From a virus, in the IMG/VR virus record IMGVR_UViG_3300025828_004167, positions 8,805 through 72,804 of that record: a stretch of DNA of 64,000 nt; one strand, given 5' to 3'. Position 1 is the stretch's first letter, and each line of letters starts with the position of its first letter. A program made the position numbers and the translations under genes. The notes below the pieces were generated by a model. That model worked only from the letters and a program-made list of their open reading frames with translations. It searched no databases and had not been told where the DNA came from. Below, one piece after another: positions 27,507-53,690 of the stretch.

Positions 27507-27512
27507 GCTAGA

Positions 27513-28587: not shown

Positions 28588-29275
28588 AATCTTCCCAGTC
28601 ATGTGGTTTATTTGTGGCATGGGTAAAGTGCACCATTTTGATGTCTGGATGAAATTCACCACCCAAATAAACGTAGTCGTTGCCCGTGACCTTGTGGTAC
28701 AACTGACTGGTCTTGACCTTCCATTTATTTAAATCAAAATTTTTCACACCAATATCCTCTTTGGCGCACCATCTAGCGACCCAACTGTCAGGCACCGTGA
28801 TCAATTCCAGTTCCTCATTGACGTTGTCTTCAACGAAGTACTGCTCCCCATTCACCGGTCCCTTTGCTATGCCCCTCTTGATGTAGTAGCTCTGCCAGAA
28901 GTCTGGGTCTGACATGAACTTGTCATAGATATACCTGCAGTCCTTGGGATAGTACTTGAAGAACCCTCCATTTATCTTGTAGCGTTTCTTTTCTGTGTCT
29001 CTCCACCATCCCGGTATCGAAACAAACTGACCTTTCTTTATGGGATACTCAAAAAGTTCTTTATAGTTGTTGACCAAAAGCACGTCAATGTCCATTACAA
29101 CTATGGGTTCGTCAATGTCTAAAGACATACCATACATTTTATTCCATTGCAGTAATACACCTTCTTTTATTGGCTTTCGTATCCATATAAATTCATACTC
29201 CGGCAATTTTTCTTCCAAGTATTTCTCGTACTCTGGACCGTACCTGTCACCTATGCGCACTGCTACAATTTTCAT
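28565..29275 (-). CDS. Glycosyltransferase-like protein (GT8-like)
   Basis: IGDRYGPEY, WNK, MDID, NGGF, GEQ, MVHF. Confidence 0.7.
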   Translation of the reverse strand: MKIVAVRIGDRYGPEYEKYLEEKLPEYEFIWIRKPIKEGVLLQWNKMYGMSLDIDEPIVVMDIDVLLVNNYKELFEYPIKKGQFVSIPGWWRDTEKKRYKINGGFFKYYPKDCRYIYDKFMSDPDFWQSYYIKRGIAKGPVNGEQYFVEDNVNEELELITVPDSWVARWCAKEDIGVKNFDLNKWKVKTSQLYHKVTGNDYVYLGGEFHPDIKMVHFTHATNKPHDWEDYESFTKL

Positions 29276-29997: not shown

Positions 29998-30650
29998 ATC
30001 TTCGTTCCTATTATCATGAATCTTTTGTATTTGCCGAAATCTTTCTCATAGAACTTGATGTTCCTCAATTTCGACACGTACTGATTCGCGAAATCCTCCA
30101 CCGTGTCCACACAATTGATGTGTTGTGTTATTTCCCTGTAGTTGTTGCTCTGCAACACGACCAATGTGTGTTCCTCTAATTTACTTATAGTGTCGTAGAT
30201 CATGGATTGATCAAGATGTTCACAGGATGTACATATAACAATGGAATTTTCAAACTTATCTATTTCTTTGATATCCTTTTCAACAAATTTAATGTATGTT
30301 AGGTAACCATTTTTCAAATTATCAGCATCAACTTTCTGCCATAGTTTTTTAGCCACAGTTTTGGCTTGTGGATCAAAATCTACACAATCTATGTGACCTA
30401 TCTTTTTCAGTGTCAATTTTTTTACCAACATGTGTGCCAACAGTCCATACCAACTGCCTAAAATAGAAACACTGATATTTTTATCCAACGTCTTGCATTT
30501 GAAATGGTGAGGATATTCATTTAATTTTTCAATCAGCCAGTCTTTACTAGCATACTGATTTGTGCTGAGACTATCAATGACGTCAATTATTCTGTCTGGA
30601 CATTTCTCTAACAGTCTCTTTACCGTGTCTAGTGTGTCCCTATCAAACAT
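29994..30650 (-). CDS. SAM-dependent methyltransferase-like protein
   Basis: ILGSWYG, CVDFD, CTSCEH, LQSNNY, RFMIIG. Confidence 0.65.
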   Translation of the reverse strand: MFDRDTLDTVKRLLEKCPDRIIDVIDSLSTNQYASKDWLIEKLNEYPHHFKCKTLDKNISVSILGSWYGLLAHMLVKKLTLKKIGHIDCVDFDPQAKTVAKKLWQKVDADNLKNGYLTYIKFVEKDIKEIDKFENSIVICTSCEHLDQSMIYDTISKLEEHTLVVLQSNNYREITQHINCVDTVEDFANQYVSKLRNIKFYEKDFGKYKRFMIIGTKI

Positions 30651-31218
30651 ATTTTTGATTGTGCAACAGTATTGTGTTGTGTTCCACTCCCTCCTGCCAG
30701 CTGGATATCTGATCTCCTATGAAATAGTTGTATTTGACGTCTTCGTTGTAGATGTATCTGTCTATACCAGAGTACAATCTCACATATAGATCTCTGTGTT
30801 TCATGAACTTTTCAAACACGTGCCGTTGATCGCTCCAACGCATTATCGAAGAGTTCACCAGCGTGTTCTGTGTCACACGGAATTTCAAGGGCGTCTTCAA
30901 AGATTCCTGTTTCCATGCACTGCTGTTGACCAAGGTCAACCCTTCGAAATCACTCGCTAAGAAATCAATGTTATCATTTATGGCTATGTCTAAATCAAAG
31001 AACAAGCACTGTCCCGTGAACTGTAGTAGGGATAACTTATGGAACACACCACGCAGTTCGGGGTGCGTGACTGGAATATCATACTCCTTCTCTGGTCTAT
31101 CTGTGAGACATCTAAATGTGTGATCTAATGTGAGATGTTCTGCGACAGAGTTTTTTAACTTTTTATCAAAGTCTCTGGTGTATTTCGTTCCGACGTTAAC
31201 ACAGTATACATCAATCAT
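30643..31218 (-). CDS. Glycosyltransferase-like protein
   Basis: VGTKY, CLTD, HKL, FFDLD, NSSIM. Confidence 0.72.
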   Translation of the reverse strand: MIDVYCVNVGTKYTRDFDKKLKNSVAEHLTLDHTFRCLTDRPEKEYDIPVTHPELRGVFHKLSLLQFTGQCLFFDLDIAINDNIDFLASDFEGLTLVNSSAWKQESLKTPLKFRVTQNTLVNSSIMRWSDQRHVFEKFMKHRDLYVRLYSGIDRYIYNEDVKYNYFIGDQISSWQEGVEHNTILLHNQKYV

Positions 31219-31681
31219 CAAAGTTATTGTAGGCCACCAACAGCTCGAGCGGTGTCTTTGCTGATCTTAGTTGAGATTTCTTTTCCTTGTCGGTAGACCC
31301 CTTCACTTTTTCTGTTTCAAATATTTCCACCTTGGTGGTGAACAACATTTCCTTACACTGTGCGTCGTTTGGATCAAAGTTCAGTATGCACTTGACGAAG
31401 TCCTCCACAGATACACGTTGTTTGATATCTGTTTTTGACTTTATGCCAGCGTCCACTATGTCGCTCAGTTGCTGTGCGTATCTCCTGTTCCGGGCGATCG
31501 TGGCCTCCGCTATCTTGTCCGTGCTGTATTCCGACACGAGGTCCTTGAAGTCTTGGTTGTTGTAATCAACCGGGAGATAATGATTTATCGCCCGCTTGCC
31601 GTCCTCATAGATCACCTCGACTGTGTTGTTTTCTGAATTTGCGAAATACGCCTCTATTATTTTTCCACTGAATATTGCCAT
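31211..31681 (-). CDS. Hypothetical protein, first gene of GT cassette 2
   Basis: 156 aa with AAAGGA RBS. Confidence 0.7.
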   Translation of the reverse strand: MAIFSGKIIEAYFANSENNTVEVIYEDGKRAINHYLPVDYNNQDFKDLVSEYSTDKIAEATIARNRRYAQQLSDIVDAGIKSKTDIKQRVSVEDFVKCILNFDPNDAQCKEMLFTTKVEIFETEKVKGSTDKEKKSQLRSAKTPLELLVAYNNFDD

Positions 31682-31704
31682 TTTTAATCCTTTGTTGCTG
31701 TGTT

Positions 31705-31733
31705 ATTGTAGCAGAACAACATCAAAAAGTCAA
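31705..31733 (-). promoter_or_regulatory. Sigma70-type promoter TTGACT-17-TACAAT with extended -10 TG
   Basis: -35 at 31728-31733, -10 at 31705-31710. Confidence 0.75.
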
Positions 31734-32666
31734 TTATGATTTCAGTATCTTGAATGTGTAGGTGTTTACAGTTGTGGGTGTTCCGTCTGGGAATTCCTGT
31801 GCCCGGTAGTCGTTGGAATTGACGAATCTGGTCTGGTAATTTCCACTTCCGCCAGTGAGCTGTGTGTTCACTATGGCTGTGCCCCTGGCCGTACCACTTC
31901 CGTCTATGTTGTATGAGATCTGGTATCCTGTCGAGGAGTTAACCACTTGATCTTTGATGTATTCCTGTAGCAGTACACCGATCTCCGCGCCCGAATACTG
32001 TTTGAGATTGTTAGACGCATCTATGTACACGGGAGGATTGTAGGTGGGTAACACCCCATCGATGACATGTAGGTAATAGTTGGTTATGGTCTGTGGCTGG
32101 TCCTGTGGCTCGCTTATATCAGCGGCCGAATACGCCGAGGTGTCTGCCCTGGTGTCAGTGAATATCGGTGTCGATGATACCAGTGTCGCTCCTGTAACAG
32201 AAGTAGATGTCGAAACGAAATATGTTCCTGCCTGGGCACTCGTTGTATCGCCCAATGACATTTGATTTATGGTTGGATACACGAATGTATCTATGAAATC
32301 CTGTTCGGTCATGGCCTGTACCTGTGTGCCATTCCAGTAGATTGGGAAGGTCTTGCCCGTATCTGTGGTGGTTATAGATGCTGATCCTGTGACCTGTGTG
32401 ATACGTTGGAACGAAGTCGTGACCACGCTGGGTTCATCTGTTGTTGCTTCAGACGGATAACCTCCACTTGCCGACAATCCCGCGCCTGCCTGTAGCCTAG
32501 TGTCGTCGATTGATGTTAGATTTCCCCCCGAACCAGACACTGTCAGTGTCCTTGAAGGTGATAATGAATAGTAATATGCGCCGAGGGTGTATATGTTGGT
32601 CAGATCACTGCTCTTCATCTGCTGAAGTTGTGCGCCGTTGTATATTAAAGGTGTTCTAACAGTCAT
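31734..32666 (-). CDS. Virion tail-associated structural protein
   Basis: 310 aa, S/T-rich, internal repeat (DDTRLQA/TDTRADT/VNTQLTG). Confidence 0.6.
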   Translation of the reverse strand: MTVRTPLIYNGAQLQQMKSSDLTNIYTLGAYYYSLSPSRTLTVSGSGGNLTSIDDTRLQAGAGLSASGGYPSEATTDEPSVVTTSFQRITQVTGSASITTTDTGKTFPIYWNGTQVQAMTEQDFIDTFVYPTINQMSLGDTTSAQAGTYFVSTSTSVTGATLVSSTPIFTDTRADTSAYSAADISEPQDQPQTITNYYLHVIDGVLPTYNPPVYIDASNNLKQYSGAEIGVLLQEYIKDQVVNSSTGYQISYNIDGSGTARGTAIVNTQLTGGSGNYQTRFVNSNDYRAQEFPDGTPTTVNTYTFKILKS

Positions 32667-32676
32667 ATGATTAGTT

Positions 32677-32705
32677 ATTATAAAACATTCCTAGGAACAT
32701 TTCAA
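32677..32705 (-). promoter_or_regulatory. Sigma70-type promoter TTGAAA-17-TATAAT
   Basis: -35 at 32700-32705, -10 at 32677-32682, 10 nt from ATG. Confidence 0.55.
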
Positions 32706-32713: not shown

Positions 32714-33931
32714 TTACGCTCCTGCGCCGTATATGGTCTTTAGTACCGTTCCCGTACTGCTCAGGATTTGTAATGATGTGCTTGATGCGAACATGGTCGA
32801 TGTCACTGTGCCAGTGTCTCCAGTCGTTACCACTGTACCTGTGACGTTTGGTATGGTAATGGTCCTGTCCGCAGTTGGGTTGGCCACTGTGATCGTGGTT
32901 TCGAAAGCGTCATCTGATGATCCTTCGAAGATGATTGTACCACTGGTTGTGAGTTGTATGCCCGACGTTGTTACAGCACCTGTTAATGGTCCTGTGAAAG
33001 CGGTCGCGTTCACAGTGCCCGCCACATCCAGTTTGGTACTAGGAGTTACTGTGCCTATACCTACCCTAGACTCGGCTCCATCGATGGTCATCACCGTAGT
33101 GCTGGTTCCACCATCATTGACCTTGAACGTGATGTCTGTGTTCTGTGCCGTGTTTGACAATATCACACCGTTGCTGTCAACTGTGATAGAAAGGTCATTG
33201 TCAGCACCCACGGTAATACCTGAGTCATTGACAATACCCAGTGTGCCTGTTGTGGTGTCGTTGGCGTCTGATCTGAGGAACGATGCCGCCGCTATGCCGC
33301 CAAGTTTATCTGCGTCTGTGGCAGTACCGTTTAATTTGATTCCTGAAGGTGAAGTTGTGAATGTTATTCCCTTGTACACAGTTGGGAAACCTGTTATCGC
33401 TGTCTGTGGCGTAAACTCCGTGTCCGAAACTATGGCTATCAGCGTGCCATCACTGTACCATTTGGTTATGGGTTGACTAGCTGTGGTGGAATCTGTGACT
33501 GCTTCATACACGAAACCATTTAACGAACCTGTTGAAGTTGGTGGACCGACCAGCACACTCTGAGATCCGTCATAGTAGAACAGTTGTCCTACATCTGAAT
33601 CTATCCAGAGGTCTCCCTGTTGTATACCACTTGGTTGTGTGGATTGGTAGGGAATGTTACCCCCGGCAGGAACGAAAAGGTTCCCTGTGTAGACTTTCAA
33701 TCTGTCAACGTCACTGTCATACCAGAGTTGCCCTTGTACTGGTTTGGTCGGTGCCGAATCGTTGGCAAAATTTTCCAGTAGATGGAGGAAATTCTCCGCT
33801 ATCAGCTCTCCATAACCCGCATAACCCTTACCAATGAAACTGAGATCCGTCTGTGTGTTGACCACACCGTCCTGTACTATGTACTGGTTAGGTGAAGCGG
33901 CGCTGTTTGTCTTGTTTACTGTGTAAGCCAT
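32714..33931 (-). CDS. Tail fibre-like protein, paralog of 17306..18946
   Basis: Shared TDL..GKGYAG.GE..ENF..QGQLW.D..QGDLW.D, GTATD.D.LGG.A..FLRSD.ND.TTG, FKVNDGG blocks; different C-terminus. Confidence 0.75.
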   Translation of the reverse strand: MAYTVNKTNSAASPNQYIVQDGVVNTQTDLSFIGKGYAGYGELIAENFLHLLENFANDSAPTKPVQGQLWYDSDVDRLKVYTGNLFVPAGGNIPYQSTQPSGIQQGDLWIDSDVGQLFYYDGSQSVLVGPPTSTGSLNGFVYEAVTDSTTASQPITKWYSDGTLIAIVSDTEFTPQTAITGFPTVYKGITFTTSPSGIKLNGTATDADKLGGIAAASFLRSDANDTTTGTLGIVNDSGITVGADNDLSITVDSNGVILSNTAQNTDITFKVNDGGTSTTVMTIDGAESRVGIGTVTPSTKLDVAGTVNATAFTGPLTGAVTTSGIQLTTSGTIIFEGSSDDAFETTITVANPTADRTITIPNVTGTVVTTGDTGTVTSTMFASSTSLQILSSTGTVLKTIYGAGA

Positions 33932-34666: not shown

Positions 34667-34672
34667 TATTTA
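34667..34672 (-). promoter_or_regulatory. Late-type TAAATA element
   Basis: 6 nt upstream of ATG 34660; includes stop codon of giant gene. Confidence 0.55.
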
Positions 34673-37600
34673 TTCAGGTGCGTTTGTGGGCTCCTCTGCT
34701 ATGAATTGGGCCTGTTGTGATGTAGAACCCTGTAGTCCTTTACCATCAGCAGGATTACCATCCTTCGCAGTGTACCATACCTGTCCTCTCTTGTGTAATA
34801 TCTTGATCTGTACGGCGTCAGCGGGTGCTGTGCTCAAAGTGACAACATTGGTGCTTCCGTCCACAGAATAGTTGATAGTTGATCCATCCTCGCTAGTGAG
34901 CAACAATCGTTGGCCACCAATGAATATGTCTAACTCACTAGCGAATGATGGGGTTTGTGATAGAGTGAACGCAATCGTACTGCCATCACCTGTGAAGGTG
35001 TTGGTGTATATCGTGTCCACGTAAGGGATGGTTTGAGTACCAGACGCGTCTACCACTGCTGTGCCTGATCCATGCTCCTTGACTCCTGTTCCCAACGTAC
35101 CACGCTTGATCTGTCCAAGTTGGTTGTTGGTCTTTGTAAAGTATTCGATTCTCTCCTTGCCTATGAACACCACTCCCGGTATTATGGTGCTAACCGTGGA
35201 CCCGTCTAGACCAATCACAGTCTGTGGGTTGGCCAATACTGACCCATCCGCCACCGTTATGGTCTCGTCATCCACTGATAAAGTCTGCGTCAGTTCCGTG
35301 GTGTGTGTCTTAGAGATACGCTTGTAGAAAGTCCTGTTCATCATGTCCTTGAATATCCTGTAACCGGTTGCGCCCGTGGCAGTCTCTAATGCGAAGTACA
35401 TCACATCTAATCTGTCAGATGACACGATTGTCTTGCCTGATATTGTGATAGTGCTTCCTGAAAGTGTGTAGTCGAATCCCTGTGCTAATTGCTGACCGTT
35501 CAACCACACGAACATGTATGAAGAGTTCAGTGGTGTGTAGTACAGTTCATGTACACCGCTCGGTCTCCCCTCCAGCACTTCTCTCCTCATCTTAGTTCCA
35601 AGAGCATTATTAAAAGTAGTCACCCTCAACACGGAACCGTTCGTAAGTGTGTGACCGTCTGCGGCGATTTGAGCAGTGTCTAGAACTAGTGCTGATGAAC
35701 TGTCCCCGCCGTCGATCGTATAATGTTTATCAACCAAGGTCGTTATGGCTATCACATCTCCCTCCACTGCACCTGTACCTTGCATATGCACAGTCTGTGT
35801 CACAAGATCAACTTCATAGTTTCCCTCCTGAGCCACGGTGCCCTCTACTAATTTCCTTCCGTTGTAGTGTACCTCGATCTGATCTTTACTGGTGATCACC
35901 TTGGCGGGATCCACCGTCGAACCATCACTCAGTCCAGATGTTACACCAAATGAGTATGTGGTTCCGTCACCCACGTAATATGTGGTGTCTGGCCCTCTTA
36001 AAACTTTTCCGTCCAGTTCCACTATTGTGAGTGCGTGGAAAGGCGAGACCGATCCCGGTGGGAATGTCATCGGCAAGGTTGTTGTGGAACCGTCGTATAT
36101 TATGTCCTCAGCTCTGATCTGTGCCACGCTCCTGGATATGCCTGTTTTCTGGAAACCTGCCACTTGTATGAAATCTCCTGCCGCTGGCGGTTCAACGAAT
36201 GTTATTGTCAAAGTGTTTGAGAAACTGCTTCCAGAAGACACGGTCGATGTGAACGCCGTTGTAGGTAATCCATTCTTGGTCACGTAGATCTCAGACGCTG
36301 TTGAATCTATGTTGAAGTCTTCCCTCACAGATGTTGCGAACTCCACAGTCGATCCATCACCCGTGTACTGATCCAACACCCTGTAATTCTGTCCCGATAT
36401 AGCAAACACTTTTGTTGTGATGATGCTAGTGTTTGCTGGTGCTGACGTGAATGTGATGGTCTTGGCCGCTACATCCACTGTGTAGTCTGCCGCTGTCGAA
36501 CCATCCAACGAAACTTTTTTAGTTACTCCGTCAACTGTCACCATGACTGATGCCAATGATCCTGGATATTCCCCTATAGAATAAGTGGTTGTGCTACCAT
36601 TACCTATGTAAGTTTTCTCTGTGATGAAAGGTACGCCCGATTCCGGTGAAGTGTACACCTTGATGTCCACTGTGTCAAAGATCTGTCCTGGCACGACTTC
36701 CTCCGGTGCGTAACTGGTTGTGGGAGATAGGAACTCATCGCCATCCACGTTGATGTCTGAAGGTGCTGATCCCAGCGCCGAAGCATACAGTCCATCCTTG
36801 GTGAACAGTCCGCCTTTGATTATGGAATCAAGTGTCCTATCGTCCGTTGGTGTTAACACACCGTCGTCATCCGCTGGTATGAATTCTACTAGTGCGTTCT
36901 CGTCTGGTGTAGTGCTCAAAGTGAATGTTGTCGTGCTACCGTCTCCCGTGATCACATCTGACAGTTTGGTTCTTGTGCTGTCATCTTTTGATGTGTAAAC
37001 GTAATACACTGATCCACTGGCCGGAGCCGTCGGGAAGGTATATGAGTTAGTTGATCCATCTGCTAGGAACGGCACCGTCCTTGATAATCCGTAATTGTCC
37101 CATGGGTAGTCATACCAAGCCGACTGATCCCAGCCCTGGCTCTGTGTGAATAATAGTCCTGTGACCATGGTTCCACCGTAGTCCACTCCCGACATTACCT
37201 GTGAAAGTTCGTTGCCCGGCATTCCCGCCGCCGGTGTGTAGAATCCCTTGATCCTGTCCGCCGCCGTCAATCCTGACTCATCACCATAGTACTTGCTGAC
37301 AGCACCTATGTTGTCGTCGAAGTCGGTGGTGGATGTGAAAGGACTGACCGCCTTGTACAATTCGTTGTCGTATCTGATCTTGTCACCGTAGGCGTAACTG
37401 GTGTTGGCCGCCCAGTTGACCACTGTTGACGTGCTGGCTATCCTATCAAACTTGATTGTGGTGTTGAAATCCCTCACCAGGTCATTGCCTAGATTAGCAT
37501 AGGCCTTGGCCACGTCTGTTGGTGTTGAACCGTCCGCCTTACCACCTGTTATGGTCACCGTTGGTGTGGTACTATAACCAAATCCTATACCCGTCACAGT

Positions 37601-40600
37601 GATTGAAGTCACCGCGCCACCACTTATGGTCGCCGTTGCTGTGGCAGATGTTGAGTCATCGCCAGTGATTGTTACTGTGGGTGCCACTTCATATCCGGAT
37701 CCACCGTAAAACACAGTTATAGATTGTACGTGCTTCCTGTGGTAGTCATACCACAACTGCCATGGGTACTGCGTGAGCCTGGTGGTCTCTGTGGCTGGGT
37801 TGATGGATCTTATCTTGCCAATGCTCTCGTCATAGAACGGTGGATTGTCGAAATCGGTTATGACACCATCGTGCTGTTCCGGCGCGTTGTAGCCCAGTTT
37901 GTACTCTCTTAATTTTGTGTGGAAAGGTTTGACCTCATTGATGTAGCTCTCTATCCAGTCATCCGTTCCCGTGGTGTATGTTTTCCTCTGGTCGAACTGC
38001 CTCACCTTGTTGACCGCTGTTATGAAACTGGTCTTGAACATCCAATCAACATAGGTCTGTTCTTCCAGCACCTTCCTCAATCCCGTGAAGAACAGTGTGT
38101 TGTACTCGAATTTAAGGTCACCTATGAACAGGTCATCCCTCAATGCCGTCAATATCTTTCTCGTCTCAGTAACCGGTTCTTGGTCAAAGGTGTTGTCATC
38201 AAAGTTGTCCTCACCATCATAACCTGTGGCGTCTTGTGAATAATCATAGAGCTTAGTGCTCAATCTAATTGTGCCGTTTTCCGTGCCCACGTTTTCCCAT
38301 CCTGTGGCCGTCCTCATGAACAGTTTCCACCCACCAGTGTCTGCACTGGTCACTTTCACATGTTTTCCAACTGCTAGGTCGAGGGCGTCAAGTTCGTACT
38401 CGAAGGTCACTTGTTTGTCGATCACGGTGTTCTCGTCGTGTACCATGTCGCCGTCGGTCTTATACCAGTCAGTGTAACTCCAGTAGTTTGATGTGTTGTA
38501 TGTCTGTATCCTCGTCCTAGACCATTCCGTGCCATCCCATTGGTATATCGCCCAGTAGTTGTTTGCGGTCTCGTCTGATTTCACGAGGTAGTTCACTGTT
38601 CCTGACAGGTCTCCTGTGTTCAAGTATCCCAACTCAGCATAGGTATCCACCTGCCCGTCCCATAGACCGCTGGCGCTGGTCGGCTCTGGCTCCTTGGCGT
38701 CAAGATTTGTTAGGCTTATCTGTCCCACCAGTTGGTTCTTCTTGAGAACCGAATTAGCGTAATCGATTATCTCCTTAAGTGCTGAGAATCTATCCACGTA
38801 CCAACTCTGTCTTGGTCTGATGTTGTTTCCATATTTCTGGTTCAAAGATAGATCCACGTCCGGAACGGCATCCCCCGAGATATTCTTACCACACAGTGAA
38901 TCCCACCAACGAGACTCGATCTGGTGTCCTGGCCTGTAGTCCGGATCTCCTTCTCGTACTAGTTTCCATACCGAGTGTGCGTCTCCGTCAAATGAGTTGG
39001 TTCTGATGTCCACGTTCAACACGATATCGCTGTTGACGAGATCGTTCACGCCATTTATGATCAATTTGTTGGTGTCTGTTACCGAGTAATATTTCATGCC
39101 TGAGTTTTCCGGGTTCCTGATCAGGTTCGCCACCAATGCCGTGGTGTTCTTCCTGTTCACCACCGAGTTTGACGGGATCGATGACCTGTTCTTGACCCAA
39201 AAGTAGTACCTGTTCACAAATGTATCTACTCTAGAATCGTATTTCTGCACCACTGTGAAGTTTTCAGATGCCTCTCCTGTCACTGATGAGAATGCACCCT
39301 CCTGTGTGCCTGACAGCGTGTTCCATTCAGTTGGAGTAAACTGAGATTCCGTCCATTCGTAAATGTCTATGCTGGATCCTGGGAAAGTTTTGCCCCAGTT
39401 GTTGACCTTGTATTCCTGCGTGCCTTGTTCGTACCATAACCATTTCACTGTTGAAAGGTCCCACCATACCTCACCAATGTGGTTTTCGGCCCATGGTGTC
39501 TTGGTGTTGGCATTGTCACCGGTATTGTACACTGCCGGATCCCATGGAGACTTGATGTTGATTTCTCTATCTGCCACTCCCAGTATCCTACCTTTCATTG
39601 GATCATATAAATCGTAGTAATCCCTGATCTGCTTGGTCTTGTTATCAAAGTCAAATACCTGTCCAAGTTTGGCTATGTCTACTAATACCGTTTCTGTTGT
39701 GATGTTCTTCCATGCGTACTCGTCCTCTACCTTTAGGTCATAACAATATACTGTACCGTCATTGGTCAAGCCAGTATTGCCCTCGTCCTTTGGTGCTCCT
39801 ATGAACAGGTTGTTGTCGATCATGCACACGCCCCTACCGAAGTCGTCGTTCTCCGAAACGTTATCTGATATTATTCTGTCATCCAATACAAACTTGGTAT
39901 TGTACACCGTGGCAGTGTATGCCGCACCAGAACCTGTGTTGAGGTCAATTATATTAGTGTCTTGTAGGTCGAAAGTGGTCTCACCTGAATCAAATTTCAT
40001 TGGTCTAGGATTGGCTGATTTCTCAGCACCTATGATCAATCTGGTTCCCGATTGGTTCATTGACAACGATGAACCGAACTTGGCATCAGAAATGTCCCCA
40101 GGCTCGTTTATGGTCTGATCCAATGTGTAGGTGTTGGTCGATCCATCCCTGTTCCATTTGTATATGTAGACTGCGCCCGCGTCGGCCTGATCTGCGTTAT
40201 CCACTCCTGGTGCGCCTATGGCCAGTGTCGTACCGTCCTTGCTCATCGCAATCGACTCACCGAACGACGTATTCAAAGTTGAACCATCTTGTTCAACACC
40301 TGTCAATGTCTGTGCCAGTGCGAATGAGTTGATCGTGCTCTCGTCATTTGCCTGTGATGTCCTCACGAATATCTCGACCTTGCCGGCATTGCCTGACGCC
40401 ACGGAACTCACGACAAGTATGTCGCCGTTGTCATTGACTTCTAGTTTGTGTCCAAACCTCTGTCCCGAACCACCCGCTGGAGCATCTATAATTAAATCCT
40501 GTGTCCATGTGTCATATGTAGAACCATCAGCGCCAATGCCCCAGGTGTACATGTACACCCTACCTGTGTCGTTGTTGTGTCCTGGTGCTGTCACAAACAG

Positions 40601-43600
40601 ATATTTCTGGTTGGTGCTTCTAGTTGAACTTGTTGTTGGTTCAGCAATCTTGTGTGCCCATCCAAAATTCAGATCTTCATTTGCTGTGGATCCGTCTGTG
40701 GGTGCAGTCAATGTTGAAAGAGGACCATACTTGAATGTGTCTGGATCCCATACGTAAATCTTGATTAGCCCTTCGTTGTAATACCTAGTGCTTCCGTCAT
40801 TGGTCAGTACATTCGTGTATGGTGCACCTGCGATCACGAAGTTCTCGTCTGTGCTGATCGACAATGATTCACCCAACCTGCTGGTGTTGTCATCGTTGTC
40901 GGTCATCGTGGTGGTGGCCTGTACGGAATATTCCGTACCAGCACTGTGACTAGATCTGAATAAGAAGTGTATTTCGCCTTGTCCTTTGCCTGGTGCCGAT
41001 ATGACTGCTGTCCTTCCGTCGTTACGCGCCACTACACGGTATCCGAAATCTTGATCTGCGGTCGTTGTGTCTGGGGACAGCGTCCTAAATTCTGTGTATG
41101 GATCCTGCTTCTCATAAACACGCCACAGCCCTGAACTGTCCGCGTCAGCGAAAACCTTGTCGCCCTCTACCTTGACCTGTTGGTTCTCATCCTTGTCATT
41201 GTAAACATTGTAGTTGATCCTGTCATTAACATTGTCCATCGAACTTAACCTCACGGAAACAAACTTGTAAACGTTGCCGTAACTGTCCGCCGTTGAACCG
41301 TCCGCCAGGGTCGGTATGAAGTCAACATTGTCATCGTAGTCCACTATCACGGTCTTGTGGTCCGGCACGCTGGCCACCTGGAACACCCTGTTCAGTGTCG
41401 TGGCCTCACTGTTTGAGATCGCGAAGTAGTCGGCCTCGGTGGTGTTTGATCCTGCTGACAGTCCATGTGAACCTGTGAACTGTATCAACAGTCTCGTGGC
41501 ATTCTCTGAAGTGCTAAGTTGATCTATCTTGATTCCGGCACTGGTCAGCCTGAACACGTCCCAGTCCTTGTTCTGCTTGTTGGCGACCCATATGAGATCA
41601 TTCTTTGTGATCGAGTTGATGTCAAGGTTCAGTAGGTCTGATATGTCAAACGCCGTGTGCTGTACCTGTTCCGTTTGTGGATAACCCGCTGTCTTGTACA
41701 CCTGTGCCTTGTCCCTGTCCACCCCGGCCTTGGTATAGTCTAGGAGTGAGAAAGTGCTGGCGGCCGTATACTCCACAGGTTTCCTGTAAAGAGTTTCCTT
41801 GATTACCGCCAATGATCTTCGATATTCTTTCGTGTCTGCTGTGTTATCTAATAACTCGATGCTCTGGGGATCTGCATTAACTTGATCATCACTCAAGGTG
41901 ATCTGTATGTTTTCCACGGAGTCTGTGTTGCCGAACACACCGGTCCTGATCATCCATTCTGGGTAGAGGCTTAGATTGATGTCTGAATTTTCATACTTGG
42001 CCTTGAGCAATTTATCGATCGCGGCCTGTGTGCCCTTCTCTCTGATGTATCCTTGATAAAACTTGTACTGTGATACGTCATTCACAAACAAGTTCTCTAG
42101 GTAATCCCTCGATTGGTAACCTATCAGCCTCTGTGCCAACTGTTGTTGTGATTCGTCGAAGTTGTTGGTCTCGAGATTGTAGAAATCATTGAACTGAGAT
42201 ATCTTGTAGTCGAAGTTGGGTATCAGTTGCGGTGCTGGCTTGTCTGCTTTCAGCGTCCAATTAGTGCTGTCAAATGTACCAGTCGAGTTATGATTGATCT
42301 TCGCAACATAGAACTTGCCTTGGTACTCTACAGAATCACCTATCCTATAATTGGTGTTGTCTTCCCAGTACGTGACCTGCGCGGCGTCGAAAACAAAACC
42401 TGGTGCGTAATAGTCGCCATTCCAGTTTGCTGTTTTCCAGCCCACTAGTTTCAACCTCTGTTGTCTGAATCCCGTGAATGGTTCATATATTATGTCTGAG
42501 AACACTGTGCTGTTGTCAAATATCAACACATGTTCCTTCTGAACTGTGTTTAATGAAATATTGTATAACCCGATGTCTTGGGATTTGACACTCAAGTCAA
42601 AAGTTTTACCAACACGTTTTGTTGATATCTCACGTATGTCTATCTTCCTACCTCCAGCGTCTAACAATGAGTAGTCGCCTGCAAGGTTCCTTAACCTACC
42701 AACTATGCTGTTGTTGGTATCTAATTCAAAACCGTCCGCGGCCGGTGACACTGTAATTGCCGAACCAGGTGACCACTCTTGTGTGGTCCAGAACAGGAAT
42801 TCTCTGACTGCGTTGGTCCAGTTGAGTGTCTCCTTTATCTCATTCGAATATTTGTTGAATCGGAAACTCTGCGATTCTAACCAGTGTCCATATCCCAGTA
42901 GGAAATCCGCCACGTCCTGAATGGTGCTGAACACATAACCATAAGGTATGGTCTGCACGGTCTCTTGATAATTCTTGTATTGTGAAACAGCCACTGACCC
43001 TGTTACAGATAATGTGCCAGCGACAGTGGATTTTGCTGGATAGTTGAACTTGAAGTAAGGTTTTGTTGTTGAGTAACCCAGCACTTTGTATCCTCCCAAC
43101 AGTGTCGACCCGTCTACACCTATGTCCGTGTTTTTTTCGATCAACACGCCTGAGTAGTTAAAGCTCTCAACCGGATTGGATGTTCTAAACAGAATCTTGT
43201 AGTTCTCGTCTGGTATGAATTTAGATCCCGAGGTGGATCCCGGAGAAACAGAATCGGTCAGTACCTTGATGTTGTCCTTGTCAGTGAACCCTCCCAACTT
43301 GTAGGCCAACTGCACATTCAAGTTTTTCATCTTGTCATAATAGAATGTTTTTGGATCTAGGTTCTTGGCCACCATGTGGTTTACCACAAAAACTTGGTAC
43401 CCCGCTGTCTGATATCTCGTTGTTATTCCCGTGTTGTTGTCCGTCAAAGTTTCGAGGTGATATTTCGCGTTCGAAAGTTGTTTCCTTATTCCCGTGTCGG
43501 CGTATATCTGGTTCCCGGCAACGTTTGTGGATAACCTGGAAACATCAAAGAAGTTCGAGAAGAACTTGGCCGGTTTTGTTATGGCCAGTGTCTTCATGAC

Positions 43601-46600
43601 CGTGAAAGGGTATGCTGACGACCTTCTCCATGCCGTCTCCGCTGGTGCTTGGTCACCAAACTTCCAAGGCTGTCTCCTGCTTGGTATGTCAAAATTATCT
43701 ATCAGTCTCGCCGCGATCGGATCGAGCAAGTTACCCGAAGCGTCCACTGGTAGATAGTTGGCGATGCCTGGCTTGCCATACCTGCCGGCCGCTGTGGCAA
43801 CCGCGTTCCATAGTATGTCATTGCCAGAAGTGTAGGGTGCTGGTCCGTAGGTGTCATCCCATGTGCTTGGTTTCTCGGAGTACCCCAACATCTCCCATGG
43901 TCTAGTGTGTGGTGCGTCTGTGTCGTAGTGGTACTTGTAGATGGCCCTCCAGTGTCCTGGCAGTTTAGCACCAGTCAGTCTGCCCGTCGAGTTGGCATAG
44001 TTGTAAGTGAACGGAGATCCCTCCGAGAACGTTGTGTTATTGATGTACTGCACACTGTTACGTCCCGCCCACACATAGAAGTCAGTGCCCATGATGTCAT
44101 CTATCTCTACGAGGGTGTAATCTGTAGATTTAAACGCACTTGGTAGGACATCATGTATGTCTAACAACGTGCTGTCGTATGCTGTCTTGCAGTTGTTGTA
44201 TATCCTCTTTTCGAGTTCCAGTATCAGATCATCACGTTCATCACCGTAGGCCTTGATTATAGATCCGTCGTGTCTTCTTATTACTGTAGTGTTGGTTGTG
44301 TATGTGTCATCCGTGAATAACTCGGGTTTGAATTTTGGATACATTCCCAACTTGGTAGGCGTTGGCGGTATGTAACTTCCAGTTGTGTCGGCGTAATCCT
44401 TGATCACTATTGTGTCGCCCACTGCAAGTGCTTTTGATATGTTTATACTATCGTCGGTTGTGCTGAATGTGTAATCTGTGCCCAATACAAGTTGTGTGTC
44501 ATTAAGATAAACGTATACCGCCCTGTTACTCAGTGTTGTGACATTGTGCTGTGAATCCATAGCGTAATCTTTTTGGGAAGTGCCCTGTACCGTGTATGTC
44601 CTTGTTGAGACGTTTTGTCCCCAACCCACCATATCCTCGTAGAAAAACGGAAATGAACTGTTCTTGCCTACGTTAATACTTTCGATTATCTCATCCACAC
44701 GATCTCTAGCCACACCCTCGTATGCCGTTCCGATTGCTTTTGTCAAGAATGCGTTGTACCATTTCTCGTATTCCTGGTTGACGTAGTCAATGGCCGCGAT
44801 GGCGTTTGCTTCCTGGTCCACTAGATTGAATATCGCTGGCACCAACGGTGCCTCGTGTTGGTGTATAGTACCACCTTTCAATCTCGCTTCCGGTATGTCC
44901 CTGAGATTCGTAGCACCTGGGACCGCGCCTGTGAGATCTTGGTTCTTGTCAAATATGTCAGTGACATGTTTCAGTATCTGTCCATACGTGAACGTGCCTA
45001 TGGTCTGGTTTAAACTGTTCGTTGAGAGGTTCTCGGGTATCTCATAGATGCCCTTGTTAGTGACCTTGATGGCACTGCTGTAGCCGGCTATCCTGATTTG
45101 ATCATTGACTTTCAGTTCTTTGACGAATCTCACATACTTGTTGGTTGTGCCGTTGACCAAGGTGTAGTCCGTGGTCAGTGTCTTCCTCACACCATTCACT
45201 GACACACTTATCTCCAGATCCGTTAATGACGCGGAGTTGGTGTAGAAATCAATTGGAAAGAGTCTCTTCTCTGTGTCATCGACTATATGCGTCCTGATCA
45301 CACGCTGTTTGCTCTCGTTGGTACGCTTGATCCAAGCACTCTTGCTATTGTGCGTGGTCCTGCCTGTTGTGTAGTGTAGGTGTCCCTCGGCCAAGTTCTT
45401 GGTCACTGTCTTGCCATCCACTTGATATGTGAACGTTCCTGACGTATGATCAGATTCGAAAACCATGTCTCCCACGTTATTGATGGTGTTGTACTTGACC
45501 TTTATACCCAGCACCGTGTCTGTGGTCGCAGTGTCTGACGTGGCATAGGCAAATACTTTGGCTCCTGCGAATGACGAGTTGGGATACGCCGTGGCGTCGT
45601 CGAAACTGGTGTGGTTGTTGTCGTACATGTTGAACAACGGCTGTTGGTTCAACGCTGTCTTCTGTTGTGTAATTTTCCATGTTGTGGAAGCGGCATCATA
45701 GTAGTATGACTTACCCTTGTTGTTAACTCCACCTTTGACAAACACCGTGTCCTTGTCCAGTGCCGTGCCGTTAGTGTCCTCGTTCAATGTCAACGACAGC
45801 ACCGTGGAATCACCTGCGTCGACGAAGTTGGCCACGTATACCTTACTCCTCACCAACGGATCGGTGTCCGCCGAGAATATGATCCTCATGCCGTCTGTTA
45901 TGGCAGTCTCGTCACAGAAGTATCCAAACTGTCCTGAGACCTGACTGAACGCGTCCCTGGTGGTCGTGTCGAAGAGGTCCACTGGATTCTTGGCCACTGT
46001 TCCTGAGTTGTACAGTGACAGTCCCGAATCAAATTCAATTATGGGTCTCTTGGCCCTGTCCGTCTCATCAAGAACCGTGCTTGTTCCATTTACCTGCGAC
46101 GCTTTTTCTATCACGGATCTGTGGAACCACCTGTTGTATCTTGACCATGCGTTGTGATCTAGTGAATCCCTCTTGATTGTTATGTAATCCTTATCCACCG
46201 GAGAACCATCCGTGGCGTAGCTCTCTGGAGTGGCCAGCACCGTGGTATCGGTCAAGGTGATTGCATCTCCAACCCCCTCTACGTAGTATTCCTTGTTCCT
46301 GTACGCGGCTGGGACCTTGCTGGAACTGAACTTGATCTTCATGCCGTTTGAAAATGCCAGTGTCCTCAATTTGTAATTCTTGACTCCCACTATGTCGTCG
46401 GCCACGTTGATCTGTGATGTGGAGGCCACTGTCCTTATGTGTAGTATTCCGTACATGCCGTCATGATTACCACACTGGTAATATAAAGTGTCGGGTGCTC
46501 CGTCTGGCACCACAAATGTCACAGTGCCCTGATCAGCACCGTTGTTGGTCACACCAGATGTGTACAACACCGATGTTGACCCATCAGCGCCAATACCGTC

Positions 46601-47308
46601 CCTGCTGGGCTCGGTCATTATGTAGAATGGATGTCCCTGTGCTTCCACTGTGAACTTGTAGGTGTTGCCCCTCCAGAGCGTCATGTCTGGATTCCTCTCG
46701 TTCTCGAGATGTCGGAAAGTGTATGCCCTTCCGGAAGATCCGTCATCGGGTAGTGCTTCCACCTTGTATTCCGCTACCGCACCTGTGCCGACTGAATCAA
46801 TTTCTATGGCGCTCGGTCCATTGGGTAGCCAGTAGTATTCTCTGTAGTTGACCAACTTGTCGTAGTCTATGGCCGGGTTCCAACTGTACACGGTCTCCTT
46901 GTTGAGCCTGTCATGGTTGTCGACCTTGCCTCCTAGGTACTGGATCTGATTGATGTAGTCGTCATACGTTCCTGTGAACTTGACCTGGTCCTCTGGATTC
47001 ACCGAAGTTGTGTCTCTGTCCGTGTATGTCACGGCTGGTTCCAATTGATATGCGAACCTATCCCTGCTGGTGGCGCCTATGTATCTGTCTGTGATCTGCC
47101 TGGTGTAAGCGTCCTGCCTTCCTACGAACCCGTCTAATCTCTCCAGTTGACCTTTCTGTACTAGTGGATCTAAAGTGCTGGCCAGGAAACGCTGGTTGGT
47201 GTCGGTCCTGTAAAACGCTGGTAGGTGCTGTACCGTCCTACGATACTCGTTCGTGCCCTGCTTGACGACTTCGTTGTTGGTCAGTGCGTTAATTGGATCG
47301 TCGGCCAT
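34670..47308 (-). CDS. Giant (4212 aa) baseplate wedge/gp7-like structural protein with cupredoxin-like domain, FG-GAP propeller and GDGST-type repeats
   Basis: Follows gp6-like gene; [10 protein letters not shown], multiple FG...GAP repeats, GxGY.xxPTVTITG repeats. Confidence 0.8.
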
Positions 47309-50832: not shown

Positions 50833-51237
50833 TTAAGATAGACGTAGAAGCGAGTTCTCATCAAAGTTGAACCTCAGTTTCTCAGTGATGTTCAGGGGCA
50901 CATATGTTATAGTGGCCTGTATAGCCAAGCCCTTATCGGCTTCTGTGACCAGTATCTCCTGTGTGCTGATACGTGGATCCGCGTTAAGGTTTGCTGTGAC
51001 ATCCTCCACTATAGCCTCTTTCAATGCTTCCGTGAAGGGCTCAAACAACGCATCATATATTATAGTTCCAAACTCAGGATTCTCCACACGCTCGCCTTTC
51101 CTGACGGAAAGCCTGTTGATGAGGTCCTGTTTGGCAACCTCGAAGTCGTACAGTTTGAAGTTTTGCTTATCCGCACGGCTACTGAAACCCTTGAAGGTCA
51201 CTTTCCTGTTTGATAGGTCTTGGTTCTTCTCTGCCAT
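50833..51237 (-). CDS. gp25: Baseplate wedge subunit gp25-like
   Basis: KGERVENPEFG..I...LFEP, DPRI. Confidence 0.9.
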   Translation of the reverse strand: MAEKNQDLSNRKVTFKGFSSRADKQNFKLYDFEVAKQDLINRLSVRKGERVENPEFGTIIYDALFEPFTEALKEAIVEDVTANLNADPRISTQEILVTEADKGLAIQATITYVPLNITEKLRFNFDENSLLRLS

Positions 51238-53690
51238 TAGTTCAATCTCCTAAATTCCACGTCCACTTTATTATAGTCAACCATGTAGAATCCCGTGTCG
51301 GTTATAACACTGGCCCACGGCACCTCTTGTGCCATCACGCCCTGGTATGTGCCCGGCAACTGCTTGTATTTAAACTCGTAGATGTTGATTCCCTGTGCGG
51401 ATCTGCCGATTAATTTTATGTCTTCCTTCAATCTTTGGTCACTGAATTTAAATCCACTGAAGAAATTCTTGACCACACCACCTATGGCACCTATCTTGCT
51501 GGATAGATTCACTCCCACGTTCTGTAGGAAACTCTGTCCCAATCTAGAGGCGTCCCTGGCGTTGAACAGTCCCGCCTTGCTGGCCAGGCTCTTGACCTGG
51601 TTCATGCCCACTATCTTGCCACCTACAACACTTGAGTACGTCTGAGTTATACTGCTTAGGTTAGATATGCTTGGCACTATGTTGCCCGCTGAAAGATTCT
51701 TTGTGAGACCTTGAACAGAGTTCAAGGCGTTATTGGCCAAATCAATGTTGCCAGAAATTCCAGACAGTGTGTTATTACCCAGTGTGAACAGTTCACCTGC
51801 TTGATTGACGAAAACGTTGTCCTTGAACAGTTCCGTGCTCTTGCCCGTGAACGACTCCACCACCTGTGACGTTAGATTTGATGTCAGATTCTTAACATCT
51901 GTGTTGAATTCGAATCCTTTGATCTTCTCTGATATACTGTCCTTGATGTCGAAAGGTAGATTTATTTTATTTGTTATTCCGTAGATGTCATTGTACTTAG
52001 ATCCGAAGTCGGTGAGTAGTTGTTTGGCTTTGACTGCATTGGTGCTCGATCCCATCTTCTGTTTCACGTACTCCAGTGCGTCCGCTTGGTATTGCGCATC
52101 TCTAATCGCGCTGTTCTCACTCAGCCTGTTCTGCTGGTTGACGAATTCGGCCGTACCTGGTGTGTTGGCCAACTGGCTCCATCTCTTCTTGTCATCACTG
52201 TCCACCGGTATGATTCCATCATTACCGATCACGCTGGCCCTGAACATGGGTTCGTGTGTGACGAATCTGTGTACTGTGGTCTTGGTCTTCCTTGTGAACT
52301 GTTCTAGAGGTTTGATGCCTTTCTGTGTGAGCTCCACATCTCCCTCGTCCCTCAACTGCATTCCTGCTTTTTCTGGTGTGAGCCAATTTGGCCCCCACGT
52401 TGGGCTCGCGCTGGTCGAGTTGAAGTGAACCTGCGATCCCGCTAGGTGTATCTGTCCGGAAGCGCCATGTAACTGTGTGCCACCGGTGAATGATGATATT
52501 CCGTCCCTAGCATAGTCTCTTACAGATCCCGCCTGCGAACTATTAAGTATGCCCTTCTCTCCGAGGTTCAACAGTAGGTCAGCAGAGTGTATCATCTCCT
52601 TGGCCGAACTGAATCTTACCTGTCCGTTGGCATGCATGTTGATGTTGCTGTCTGAGTGCAGGTTGAAGTCTCCCTCTGTCCTCATATTGATACCACCCAC
52701 TCCGGAGTATAGATCTATCCTACCGTTGCTCTGCATCTCTATCCAGGCGTTTCCCGAACCGTTTGCTATGTACACAACACCCTCGGTGTCGTGCATCAAA
52801 AGTTGATGTCCCGAAGCAGTTCTTAACCTTGTCAGTTGGTTCGTACCGTTAACGGCACCGTCGTCCATAACAAACGTGTGACCTGTGGTCCTTGTCACGT
52901 AGTCGGTGGCTTCTGAATCTTTTGAACCCACTTTCTTCTTTGGTGTGCCGGTATCTTTCCTACCCGGTGTGCTTATACCAAACACCTGACTGGGTGTCTC
53001 TCTCCTGGCCGACGACGTCGTTGTTCCCCTAATTGGATCAGCTATCAAGCCCTGTTTCAACAACACATCCGCGAAAGGATGTATAGGTTTTGGGGTTGAC
53101 TCATAATTACCATTGGCGAGAGCACCAGGTGTGTTCCTGTTAAGTTCACCGGCTGGTACTGTTTTTGTTCCGTAATTTTTTTGCTTGTCGATTAAATCTT
53201 GTTGTGCGCCCGGGGGGCCTTCCTGTTCCCCGGTCACTTTGTCCCAAGTGTTGGCACTGGCCGCTATTCCCGGTGTCATGTGGTTGGTGTAGGGATCCTG
53301 AACACAACCTATCCAATAGGCCTGGTCCATCTTGCCCTCGGCAAATATGACGAGAACCTTGGTGTCTAGGTCAGGTGGCACCGCCCAGAAACCATACGAA
53401 TGTTGACTGTCCTCGAACTCCCTGGAAACACCGTTGGTGTACTGTGCGCCCTTGGCACCATAGAAAGGTGATAGGTAGTCACAGGTTATCAACTGCTTCT
53501 CTGTGGGGTTCTCTGTCTTTACTAGGCTTGGTATGAAAACCTTGAGCCTTCCCATCCTGGCTGGGTCCTTGTTGCCCTTGACTATGCCAAGGTAGGGTCC
53601 GGAGTTAGTGACCGACCATTCCTGGTTCCAGTTACTGCCCGACGGTTTGGGTGTCGAAGCGTGTCCTTTCAAATAATCTCTCTGTGCCAT
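51237..53690 (-). CDS. gp5: Central spike gp5/VgrG-like protein with C-terminal peptidase S74-type chaperone domain
   Basis: DP.RMGRLKV, VPPD..KVLV.F..G....YWIGC (OB fold), GH...MDD, RT.SGH; C-terminal SDQRLKEDI...GVMAQEV...VDY. Confidence 0.82.
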   Translation of the reverse strand: MAQRDYLKGHASTPKPSGSNWNQEWSVTNSGPYLGIVKGNKDPARMGRLKVFIPSLVKTENPTEKQLITCDYLSPFYGAKGAQYTNGVSREFEDSQHSYGFWAVPPDLDTKVLVIFAEGKMDQAYWIGCVQDPYTNHMTPGIAASANTWDKVTGEQEGPPGAQQDLIDKQKNYGTKTVPAGELNRNTPGALANGNYESTPKPIHPFADVLLKQGLIADPIRGTTTSSARRETPSQVFGISTPGRKDTGTPKKKVGSKDSEATDYVTRTTGHTFVMDDGAVNGTNQLTRLRTASGHQLLMHDTEGVVYIANGSGNAWIEMQSNGRIDLYSGVGGINMRTEGDFNLHSDSNINMHANGQVRFSSAKEMIHSADLLLNLGEKGILNSSQAGSVRDYARDGISSFTGGTQLHGASGQIHLAGSQVHFNSTSASPTWGPNWLTPEKAGMQLRDEGDVELTQKGIKPLEQFTRKTKTTVHRFVTHEPMFRASVIGNDGIIPVDSDDKKRWSQLANTPGTAEFVNQQNRLSENSAIRDAQYQADALEYVKQKMGSSTNAVKAKQLLTDFGSKYNDIYGITNKINLPFDIKDSISEKIKGFEFNTDVKNLTSNLTSQVVESFTGKSTELFKDNVFVNQAGELFTLGNNTLSGISGNIDLANNALNSVQGLTKNLSAGNIVPSISNLSSITQTYSSVVGGKIVGMNQVKSLASKAGLFNARDASRLGQSFLQNVGVNLSSKIGAIGGVVKNFFSGFKFSDQRLKEDIKLIGRSAQGINIYEFKYKQLPGTYQGVMAQEVPWASVITDTGFYMVDYNKVDVEFRRLN

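Follow-up and report, generated by a model that had tools for sequence, protein, structure and literature searches.

Why should one tetrapeptide, Asp-Gly-Ser-Thr (DGST), occur 19 times in a single viral protein? The question is raised by a stretch of 64,000 nucleotides from IMG/VR virus record IMGVR_UViG_3300025828_004167 (positions 8,805 to 72,804; the window hereafter), the greater part of a viral contig 72,804 bases long that comes from an uncultured jumbo phage of marine origin. The protein, a giant baseplate protein (the giant hereafter), is encoded by one open reading frame (ORF). DGST is a real, conserved and lineage-specific loop motif of this protein. The reading preferred here, at a probability of roughly 0.5, is that of a structural hairpin-loop cap, similar to the Asp-box and amplified in one phage lineage.

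The first-pass annotation of the window had counted the motif by hand, and the count is exact: 19 DGST, two DDST and one each of DEST, NGST and DGSS are found in 4212 amino acids. All sequence contexts it had listed (ADGSTS, NDGSTR, TDGSTA, ADGSTY, QDGSTL, RDGSTN, VDGSTL and LADGSTA) are present in the translation, as are its three codon examples at 46574-46585, 40787-40798 and 40685-40696. Both Ser codon families are used (TCN in 15 copies, AGY in four), and only one of the 12-mers coding for DGST occurs twice; with such codon diversity the motif is not a DNA repeat, and gene conversion is ruled out on the same ground. The expectation of less than one copy, previously a rough estimate from composition, holds in the exact calculation (0.23 for independent and identically distributed residues), and a first-order Markov model expects 1.37 copies. 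In 2000 shuffles of the giant, DGST reached at most three copies and any tetrapeptide at most seven. The next most frequent tetrapeptides in the giant itself are ADGS, which overlaps DGST (six copies), and several with three. Among the 24 orderings of the four residues, DGST alone is enriched (TDGS 2, GDST 1, others 0). The giant is rich in these residues (D 8.4, G 7.7, S 7.6 and T 11.2%), but chance, composition or a DNA-level repeat, with a negligible probability, is excluded as the cause of DGST by the 19 observed copies, the rarity of the remaining 23 orderings (0-2 occurrences), the differing codons and the conservation across 120 orthologues.

The motif is confined to this one protein. 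The other 51 genes (16,005 amino acids) contain no DGST among 57 DG dipeptides, whereas 19 of the 49 DG of the giant belong to DGST (Fisher p = 4e-8), and no DGST was found in other stop-to-stop frames of at least 60 amino acids on the whole contig. The gp6-like neighbour has none, as described before. Between 5 and 19 DGST were counted in the giant ORF at each of 80 related viral loci, some of which contain it only in part; all other same-strand ORFs of these loci together have 10 in 102,978 amino acids versus 7.06 expected. In a 196-kb relative, no ORF apart from the giant exceeds two copies.

The giant ORF is located directly downstream of a gp6-like wedge gene (1160 amino acids; phrog_10646, baseplate wedge, PHROGs E 2e-296), the same gene position as that of PA5oct gp355, Atu_ph07 gp180 and the VrlC giants of pelagi- and cyanomyophages. 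Its residues 1-1500 align along 90% of the stretch with PA5oct gp355 and Atu_ph07 gp180, at about 29% identity (tblastn of this part against PA5oct gp355, E 1e-98), and PA5oct gp355 is annotated as a virion structural protein detected by electrospray ionisation tandem mass spectrometry (ESI-MS/MS). Via these virion-proven homologues and the gp6-like neighbour, the giant is classified, by homology, as a T4 gp7-like/VrlC-like baseplate wedge giant. With more than 1252 homologues, this is a very abundant family in metagenomes; the best 120 are 4186-4347 amino acids long and 70-100% identical. A DNA similarity search against isolated phages returned a single 122-base match, and by their Rad50-like protein the nearest isolates are PA5oct-like phages (48% identity), not pelagimyophages. 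Neither the phage lineage nor its giant was the subject of any paper found in the literature search.

Several domains are predicted within the giant (Table 1). The cupredoxin-like domain shares 52% identity with the C-terminal end of gp29 from cyanophage Bellamy (tblastn), and its sequence suggests a module common to marine myovirus baseplates. About 100 cyanophage records match this domain and not the remainder of the giant. Residues 1985-2560 are assigned to the FG-GAP/integrin-alpha beta-propeller class from the Pfam FG-GAP_2 match (53.7 bits, cut-off 23) and the similarity of the predicted model to integrin alpha propellers (Foldseek E 4e-14, target template modelling score (TMt) 0.62-0.65). 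CBM_5_12, a carbohydrate-binding module, is matched by two stretches (Pfam). The C-terminal array consists of small repeat domains, each of which opens with a hairpin of the form aromatic-x-G-D-G-S-T-x-x-F/Y-x-L. With Foldseek, the C-terminal model is best matched by a tail chain of cyanophage A4 (E 1e-7), by N-terminal domains of CBA120 TSP4 and by a T4 baseplate chain. By sequence, the sole match of the whole giant in the PDB was the CBM at E = 1, and a search with the C-terminal alignment profile gave five matches at E 0.36-0.94, none meaningful, among them a designed beta-barrel that happens to have a DGS hairpin.

Conservation was followed in the 120 orthologues, which carry 10-21 DGST copies per giant. 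At 17 well-aligned sites, residue identity is 0.96 for D, 0.93 for S, 0.87 for T (0.96 for T or S) and 0.89 for G, versus baselines for the same residue types elsewhere in the giant of 0.78, 0.62, 0.71 and 0.85, respectively; at the 30 other DG dipeptides of the giant, D is at 0.65 and G at 0.75. The alignment thus indicates that selection acts on the residues of the motif. Since D, S and T lie well above their baselines but G does not, the working motif can be written D-x-S-[T/S], with x mostly G. The usual substitutes for DGST are DGSS, DGTT, DDST, DEST and DNST, and 19-32 D-x-S-[T/S] sites (mean 26) are occupied per orthologue. At site 2388, for example, 64 of the 120 orthologues have DGST, 31 DDST and 24 another D-x-S-[ST]. 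Motif identity exceeds that of the flanks at sites such as 242 (0.97 vs 0.53). A drift in the specificity of a reader, which would appear as a concerted motif shift throughout a clade, was rejected, as the site-by-orthologue matrix, inspected by eye, shows site-wise and not genome-wide changes.

A search of the full library with the C-terminal 818 amino acids gave 911 relatives, and rows less than 45% identical to the query were regarded as distant. Five copies (3417, 3456, 3651, 3739 and 4108; class 1) lie on the hairpin that opens a repeat domain, where distant giants have the motif too; they correspond to the few copies that had been attributed to a familiar TGDGSTxxF tail repeat. At four class-1 sites DG is kept in 39/48, 73/113, 47/109 and 46/85 distant rows, and DGST is the commonest tetrapeptide (14/53 at site 3417; 28 of the 113 rows at site 3651). 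Nearly all DGST copies of distant giants have the class-1 form (GDGST-x-x-F), so that the motif at the domain-start hairpin appears to be ancient, from the alignments.

The other 14 copies are specific to the lineage and are often placed within loop insertions that lack a counterpart in distant homologues. Lineage-specific insertions had been predicted for the motif, and they are seen at many sites: 1399, 4035, 3602, 2388 and 242 are mostly gapped in distant rows. Site 1399 is such an insertion, because 53 of 55 distant giants are gapped there; site 242 is gapped in 28 of 42, and in the Bellamy cupredoxin domain the loop is shorter and DGST is missing. Site 3602, gapped in 51 of 64 distant rows, is apparently a recent gain. 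The 64 distant giants of at least 3000 amino acids have a median of one DGST (range 0-7), together 110 versus 9.7 expected. In 52 further viral loci 0-7 copies were counted, except for one locus belonging to this lineage. Unlike the giant of the window, Atu_ph07 gp180 (4384 amino acids read) and PA5oct gp355 (3857 amino acids) have no DGST. The idea that other phages might use a different motif did not hold: no tetrapeptide replaces DGST in the giants of other lineages, whose top tetrapeptides mostly have 3-5 copies.

Two AlphaFold models, for which 49 and 45 orthologues were aligned, cover 16 of the 19 copies, and the motif was mapped onto their DSSP strings. The propeller model has a predicted local distance difference test score (pLDDT) of 77 and a predicted template modelling score (pTM) of 0.80; the C-terminal model is of moderate confidence (mean pLDDT 66). 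In these models, 13 of the 16 copies are situated in loops of 5-8 residues with a strand on either side, most often as x-D-G-S-T-x; two others are in loops of 13 and 19 residues and one is in an unmodelled linker. The same strand-loop-strand placement is seen for the variants DDST-3442, NGST-3570, DGTT-3781 and DGTT-2358. A beta-turn motif, named earlier as an alternative to a modification tag, agrees with the tight hairpin tips of the models. The copies have this local structure in common but not one equivalent repeat position, as three different blade loop positions are used in the propeller and at least three positions in the C-terminal domains (sequence and DSSP, by eye). Polyprotein cleavage between DG and ST was rejected, the copies being within propeller blades and domains and not at domain borders.

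According to the preferred reading, D-x-S-[T/S] would cap tight strand-loop-strand connections, typically a six-residue loop x-D-G-S-T-x, in which the Asp carboxylate and the Ser/Thr hydroxyls may hydrogen-bond the loop backbone and rigidify the hairpin tip. The ancestral source would be the first hairpin of the C-terminal beta-sandwich repeat domains, common to distant giants. The same cap would then have been fixed at about 14 non-homologous loops in one marine jumbo-phage lineage, in the cupredoxin-like domain, the FG-GAP propeller, linkers and second hairpins, often together with a short loop insertion, and purifying selection would since have retained it. From this we infer a purely structural role, the stabilisation of exposed hairpin tips in a large, beta-rich, externally exposed protein. 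A structural cap is favoured by the uniform local structure of the modelled copies, by the age of the five class-1 copies, by selection on D, S and T, by the finding that no enzyme tracks the motif (see below) and by the precedent of the Asp-box for a short hairpin motif in different folds.

The Asp-box is described as a short hairpin motif, a defined hairpin that recurs in different folds (PMC2716378). DGST resembles it (S-x-D-x-G-x-T-W) in having Asp, Gly and Thr at the hairpin tip, and the predicted DGST beta-hairpins likewise recur in non-homologous folds (propeller and beta-sandwich repeats); the function of the Asp-box beyond structure is unclear. In contrast to the Asp-box, D and G are adjacent in all 19 copies, Ser is obligatory and there is no Trp, which is not among the commonest residues at any position in a tally of the flanks (-6 to +11) of the 19 copies. 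The Asp-box is ancient and widespread, whereas heavy use of DGST is found in one protein of one phage lineage. By consensus DGST is not an Asp-box; it is a recurrent beta-hairpin motif, unusual in its restriction to a single protein and a single lineage and in its loop insertions. A full-text literature search for 'DGST motif' returned no paper.

The class-1 copies, as start hairpins of small beta-sandwich domains, may also be akin to those of tail-fibre and tailspike adaptor domains. The comparison set comprised the T7 gp17 N-terminal domain (PF03906), DUF4183 and the T4 gp10-like domains of CBA120 TSP4. Foldseek aligned the C-terminal repeats with residues 1-335 of CBA120 TSP4 at a probability of 0.97-1.0 and a TMt of only 0.16-0.25, low because the query is multi-domain. 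PF03906 and DUF4183 clusters are a lead from the Atlas only (scores 0.92-0.93), and neither PF03906 nor PF13799 was matched by Pfam in the giant at E <= 0.1. A likeness to adaptor domains would cover just five of the 19 copies.

Several observations weigh against a structural cap. The same folds exist without the motif, as in the two isolate homologues with no copy and the distant giants with a median of one, and in the same phages DGST does not rise above baseline in other virion proteins rich in beta structure (10 vs 7.06 expected, see above). Gly, the key residue of a classic Asp-Gly turn, is the least constrained of the four (0.89 vs 0.85) and gives way to D, E, N, S or A at sites that keep D, S and T. 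Local stability alone leaves the convergence of about 14 independent loops on one tetrapeptide unaccounted for. Furthermore, the hydrogen-bond geometry is a proposal, and the C-terminal model is only moderately confident. Since a cap does not explain the motif-free folds, the virion proteins at baseline and the unconstrained Gly, two further readings, a modification site and a binding site, stay alive.

The better of these, which we regard as possible but tentative, is a structural sequon, a strand-DGST-strand tip read by a lineage-specific enzyme that either the phage genome of roughly 300 kb or the host would encode; Ser/Thr O-glycosylation, Asp beta-hydroxylation or another change at 15-30 sites per chain would be candidates. 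In its fuller form, somewhat less likely still, the enzyme would recognise the hairpin shape together with D-x-S-T and modify 15-30 loops per chain, decorating the outer baseplate. The loop insertions would then have been selected for adding acceptor sites. This fits the hydroxyls of Ser and Thr/Ser and the Asp, which are far above baseline when Gly is not, the limitation of the motif to one protein, the many copies in lineage-specific insertions (site 4035, gapped in 57 of 62 distant rows, besides 1399 and 3602) and homologous folds elsewhere that do without it. An Asp plus hydroxyl motif in many copies on exposed loops recalls sequons and AspH substrates, and autotransporter heptosyltransferases read a strand-loop-strand motif. 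According to PMC12837462, Asp15 of cinnamycin is hydroxylated by CinX, and Thr18 as well as Lys19 are close to it. AspH-like neighbours, claimed by the first-pass annotation, are indeed encoded in the window (three PF05118 ORFs), which also harbours a TauD-like ORF, two S-adenosylmethionine (SAM) methyltransferases and a desaturase-like ORF.

However, DGST fits none of the modification patterns compared, namely N-x-S/T, the Bacteroidetes pattern (D-S/T-hydrophobic), the epidermal growth factor (EGF) pattern (C-x-D/N-x-x-x-x-F/Y-x-C-x-C) or that of cinnamycin, whose residues 16-17 we take to be Gly-Asn, CinX presumably being a PF05118 member. The EGF-type AspH frame is not matched, with no Cys flanking any copy and an aromatic residue at +6 in seven of the 19 copies instead of +5. 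Another pattern containing DGS is that of the polycystic kidney disease (PKD) domain (W-D-F-G-D-G-S); no PKD family was found among the Pfam matches of the giant (E <= 0.1).

The glycosyltransferase that had been named as a neighbour was not recovered: no such family was above the cut-off with Pfam on 50 window ORFs and the giant, none was found by PHROGs on 20 window ORFs, and PF00535 and PF00534 had no match across the contig. A GT1-like ORF of 394 amino acids occurs in all four relatives searched (PF00534 over the cut-off in two, below it in two), a point in favour of a sequon. The oxygenase-type genes do not follow the motif either. They belong to a variable insert (about 19,000-32,700) bracketed by two fibre-like genes (32714-33931 and 17306-18946), which contains the three PF05118 ORFs, the TauD-like ORF, the two SAM methyltransferases, the desaturase-like ORF and six ORFs without a family; ORFs at 28565-32666 and 13264-20767 received no function from Pfam or PHROGs. 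In 37 fully flanked related loci, a BLAST match to the first AspH-like ORF (AspH1) or the desaturase-like ORF lies beside the giant in three, and matches to the small ORFs at 28565-32666 are found in 7-8, while a fibre-like 546-amino acid gene is present within about 7 kb downstream of the giant in all 37.

By hidden Markov model search, PF05118 is encoded on six of 13 related contigs, one of the seven negatives having no DNA downstream of the giant. The giants carry 15, 18, 10, 16, 16 and 18 DGST with PF05118 on the contig and 17, 17, 15, 17, 14 and 14 without it. PF05118 genes are also found in lineages with giants of 0-3 DGST (G014, G022, G025 and G026). Contigs without PF05118 thus keep the motif at equal load, an outcome that the first-pass annotation had itself named as refuting, and the earlier proposal of an O-glycosylation or Asp-hydroxylation tag read by the neighbouring enzymes is not supported.

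The window further encodes eight radical-SAM ORFs in all, among them five paralogues of NF033640, a radical SAM family with an N-terminal twitch (N_Twi)/SPASM-like domain; four are in tandem, with the fifth some 4 kb beyond them. The array is found in 8/8 contigs of the lineage, not in Atu_ph07 or PA5oct, and in 6/13 contigs of other, DGST-poor giant-bearing jumbo-phage lineages. As a reader of the motif it was rejected, since it is also present in the 99%-complete, 353-kb G015, whose giant has no DGST. Across the relatives, neither PF05118 nor the N_Twi radical-SAM family tracks the motif, and no glycosyltransferase was found on the contig of the window; the related contigs are fragments (CheckV completeness estimates 2-55%), so that an enzyme encoded elsewhere in the genome may exist. 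Possible readers would be the GT1-like gene of the relatives, an oxygenase or a radical-SAM enzyme. The lack of any other dominant tetrapeptide in the giants of other lineages also counts against a sequon.

The location of these genes says little. In pelagimyophages, according to PMC7029224, fibres are encoded in a hypervariable region downstream of the giant baseplate gene, together with radical-SAM cassettes and a core gene of AspH-like type, and the window is similar in this respect; enzymes next to the giant are therefore expected.

A binding site, which we consider rather improbable, is the second alternative. The hairpin tips would, unmodified, bind Ca2+/Mg2+ from seawater via the Asp carboxylate and the Ser/Thr hydroxyls, make weak multivalent contacts with host surface glycans, or dock the N-terminal domains of tail fibres on the C-terminal repeats. 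The three conserved residues do carry oxygen ligands and position 2 accepts G, D, E, N and S. The two CBM_5_12 stretches and the integrin-like propeller would mark the giant as a surface-interaction protein. The Foldseek matches of the C-terminal model, among them N-terminal domains of CBA120 TSP4 and one T4 baseplate chain, point in the same direction, gp10-like domains being docking modules, as do the two fibre-like genes that come after the giant and share an N-terminal phrog_15511 domain. Against this, the motif fits no known Ca-binding or metal ion-dependent adhesion site (MIDAS) pattern: DxDxDG occurs separately in one blade (by eye) and DxSxS fits copy 242 only. Judging from blade topology, the copies also are on loops of both propeller faces.

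Coordinates of the 19 copies, the domains of the giant and further genes are compiled in Table 1. The best NCBIfam matches of the B12-binding-type radical-SAM ORF are P-/C-methyltransferases, far below the cut-off. The carbamoyltransferase ORF is at the end of a conserved block and has homologues in two relatives (G001 and G002). The replication/recombination module comprises an unassigned ORF of 326 amino acids as well as genes for an SbcD-like metallophosphoesterase and for a Rad50/SbcC-like ATPase, the latter with 48% identity to PA5oct.

Table 1. Features of the window. Site numbers are DGST residue positions in the giant; fractions of 120 refer to orthologues (MAFFT alignment).
Feature	Position	Strand	Remarks
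Giant baseplate protein (P0001)	34670..47308	-	one ORF, 4212 amino acids; gp7-like/VrlC-like position
Cupredoxin-like domain, residues ~175-314	46367..46786	-	tblastn to cyanophage baseplate/fibre proteins; holds DGST-242
Integrin-alpha-like seven-bladed FG-GAP propeller, residues 1985-2560	39629..41356	-	Pfam FG-GAP_2; 6 DGST
CBM_5_12 carbohydrate-binding module, residues 3298-3329	37322..37417	-	Pfam 43 bits, cut-off 26.2
C-terminal array of small beta-sandwich repeat domains, residues 3395-4212	34673..37126	-	AlphaFold prediction; 10 DGST
DGST-242	46574..46585	-	cupredoxin loop, longer than in cyanophage homologues; DGST 104/120
DGST-1399	43103..43114	-	111/120; gapped in 53/55 distant giants
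DGST-2003	41291..41302	-	linker ahead of propeller, pLDDT <50; 118/120
DGST-2171	40787..40798	-	propeller, 6-residue loop TNDGST between two strands; 114/120
DGST-2205	40685..40696	-	propeller, 13-residue blade-to-blade loop; DGST 71/120, DGSS 33/120
DGST-2261	40517..40528	-	propeller, 6-residue hairpin loop GADGST; 112/120
DGST-2341	40277..40288	-	propeller, 6-residue loop EQDGST; DGSS 85/120, DGST 35/120
DGST-2388	40136..40147	-	propeller, 8-residue hairpin loop NRDGSTNT; gapped in 51/74 distant rows
DGST-3259	37523..37534	-	after GGSGY-type repeats, outside both models; DGST 56/120, DGTT 31/120
DGST-3417	37049..37060	-	class 1, domain-start hairpin, 6-residue loop
DGST-3456	36932..36943	-	class 1 hairpin; DG kept in 39/48 distant rows
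DGST-3602	36494..36505	-	second hairpin of repeat domain, 8-residue loop; 17/120 only
DGST-3651	36347..36358	-	class 1 hairpin; 105/120
DGST-3739	36083..36094	-	class 1 hairpin; 109/120; motif identity 0.94 vs flank 0.47
DGST-3795	35915..35926	-	19-residue loop; DDST 87, DGST 17, EDST 12 of 120
DGST-4035	35195..35206	-	6-residue hairpin loop, insertion; 38/120; gapped in 57/62 distant rows
DGST-4108	34976..34987	-	class 1 hairpin; 117/120
DGST-4141	34877..34888	-	second hairpin of last domain, 6-residue loop; 119/120; DGST 0/29 distant rows
DGST-4150	34850..34861	-	next hairpin, 5-residue loop; 83/120
PF05118 AspH-like ORFs	26378-27037, 25041-25916, 20760-21413		Pfam
Five NF033640 radical-SAM paralogues	2461-3627, 3609-4928, 4915-6198, 6188-7543, 11904-13274	-	287-415 bits, cut-off 170
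B12-binding-type radical-SAM ORF	8205-9683	+	only + strand gene in block
Radical SAM/SPASM ORF	9684-10715	-	
Small radical-SAM ORF	27925-28662	-	245 amino acids
Carbamoyltransferase N-terminal domain	2-847, runs off window	-	PF02543, E 2e-35
gp5-like protein	51237-53690	-	817 amino acids; Phage_base_V OB domain and C-terminal Peptidase_S74 intramolecular chaperone domain
Replication/recombination module	57203-61122	+	strand switch
GT1-like ORF in relatives	G002:C1:14849-15307; G005:C1:75197-75655		~40 kb from giant; PF00534 match absent on the window's contig

For this phage group, a giant structural gene adjoining an enzyme-rich island is no evidence of a substrate relationship; the island forms a hypervariable region whose enzymes are found both where the motif is present and where it is absent. 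Recurrent hairpin motifs of the Asp-box type are known and their purpose is poorly understood. DGST is an unusually clean case, with one tetrapeptide fixed and conserved in a single protein at about 14 loops that are not homologous, and sister lineages that have the same folds without it. The contrast between rich and poor lineages makes the choice between loop engineering and a surface tag testable. If the sequon were true, a defined acceptor motif for the modification of virion proteins would be known from a marine jumbo phage for the first time.

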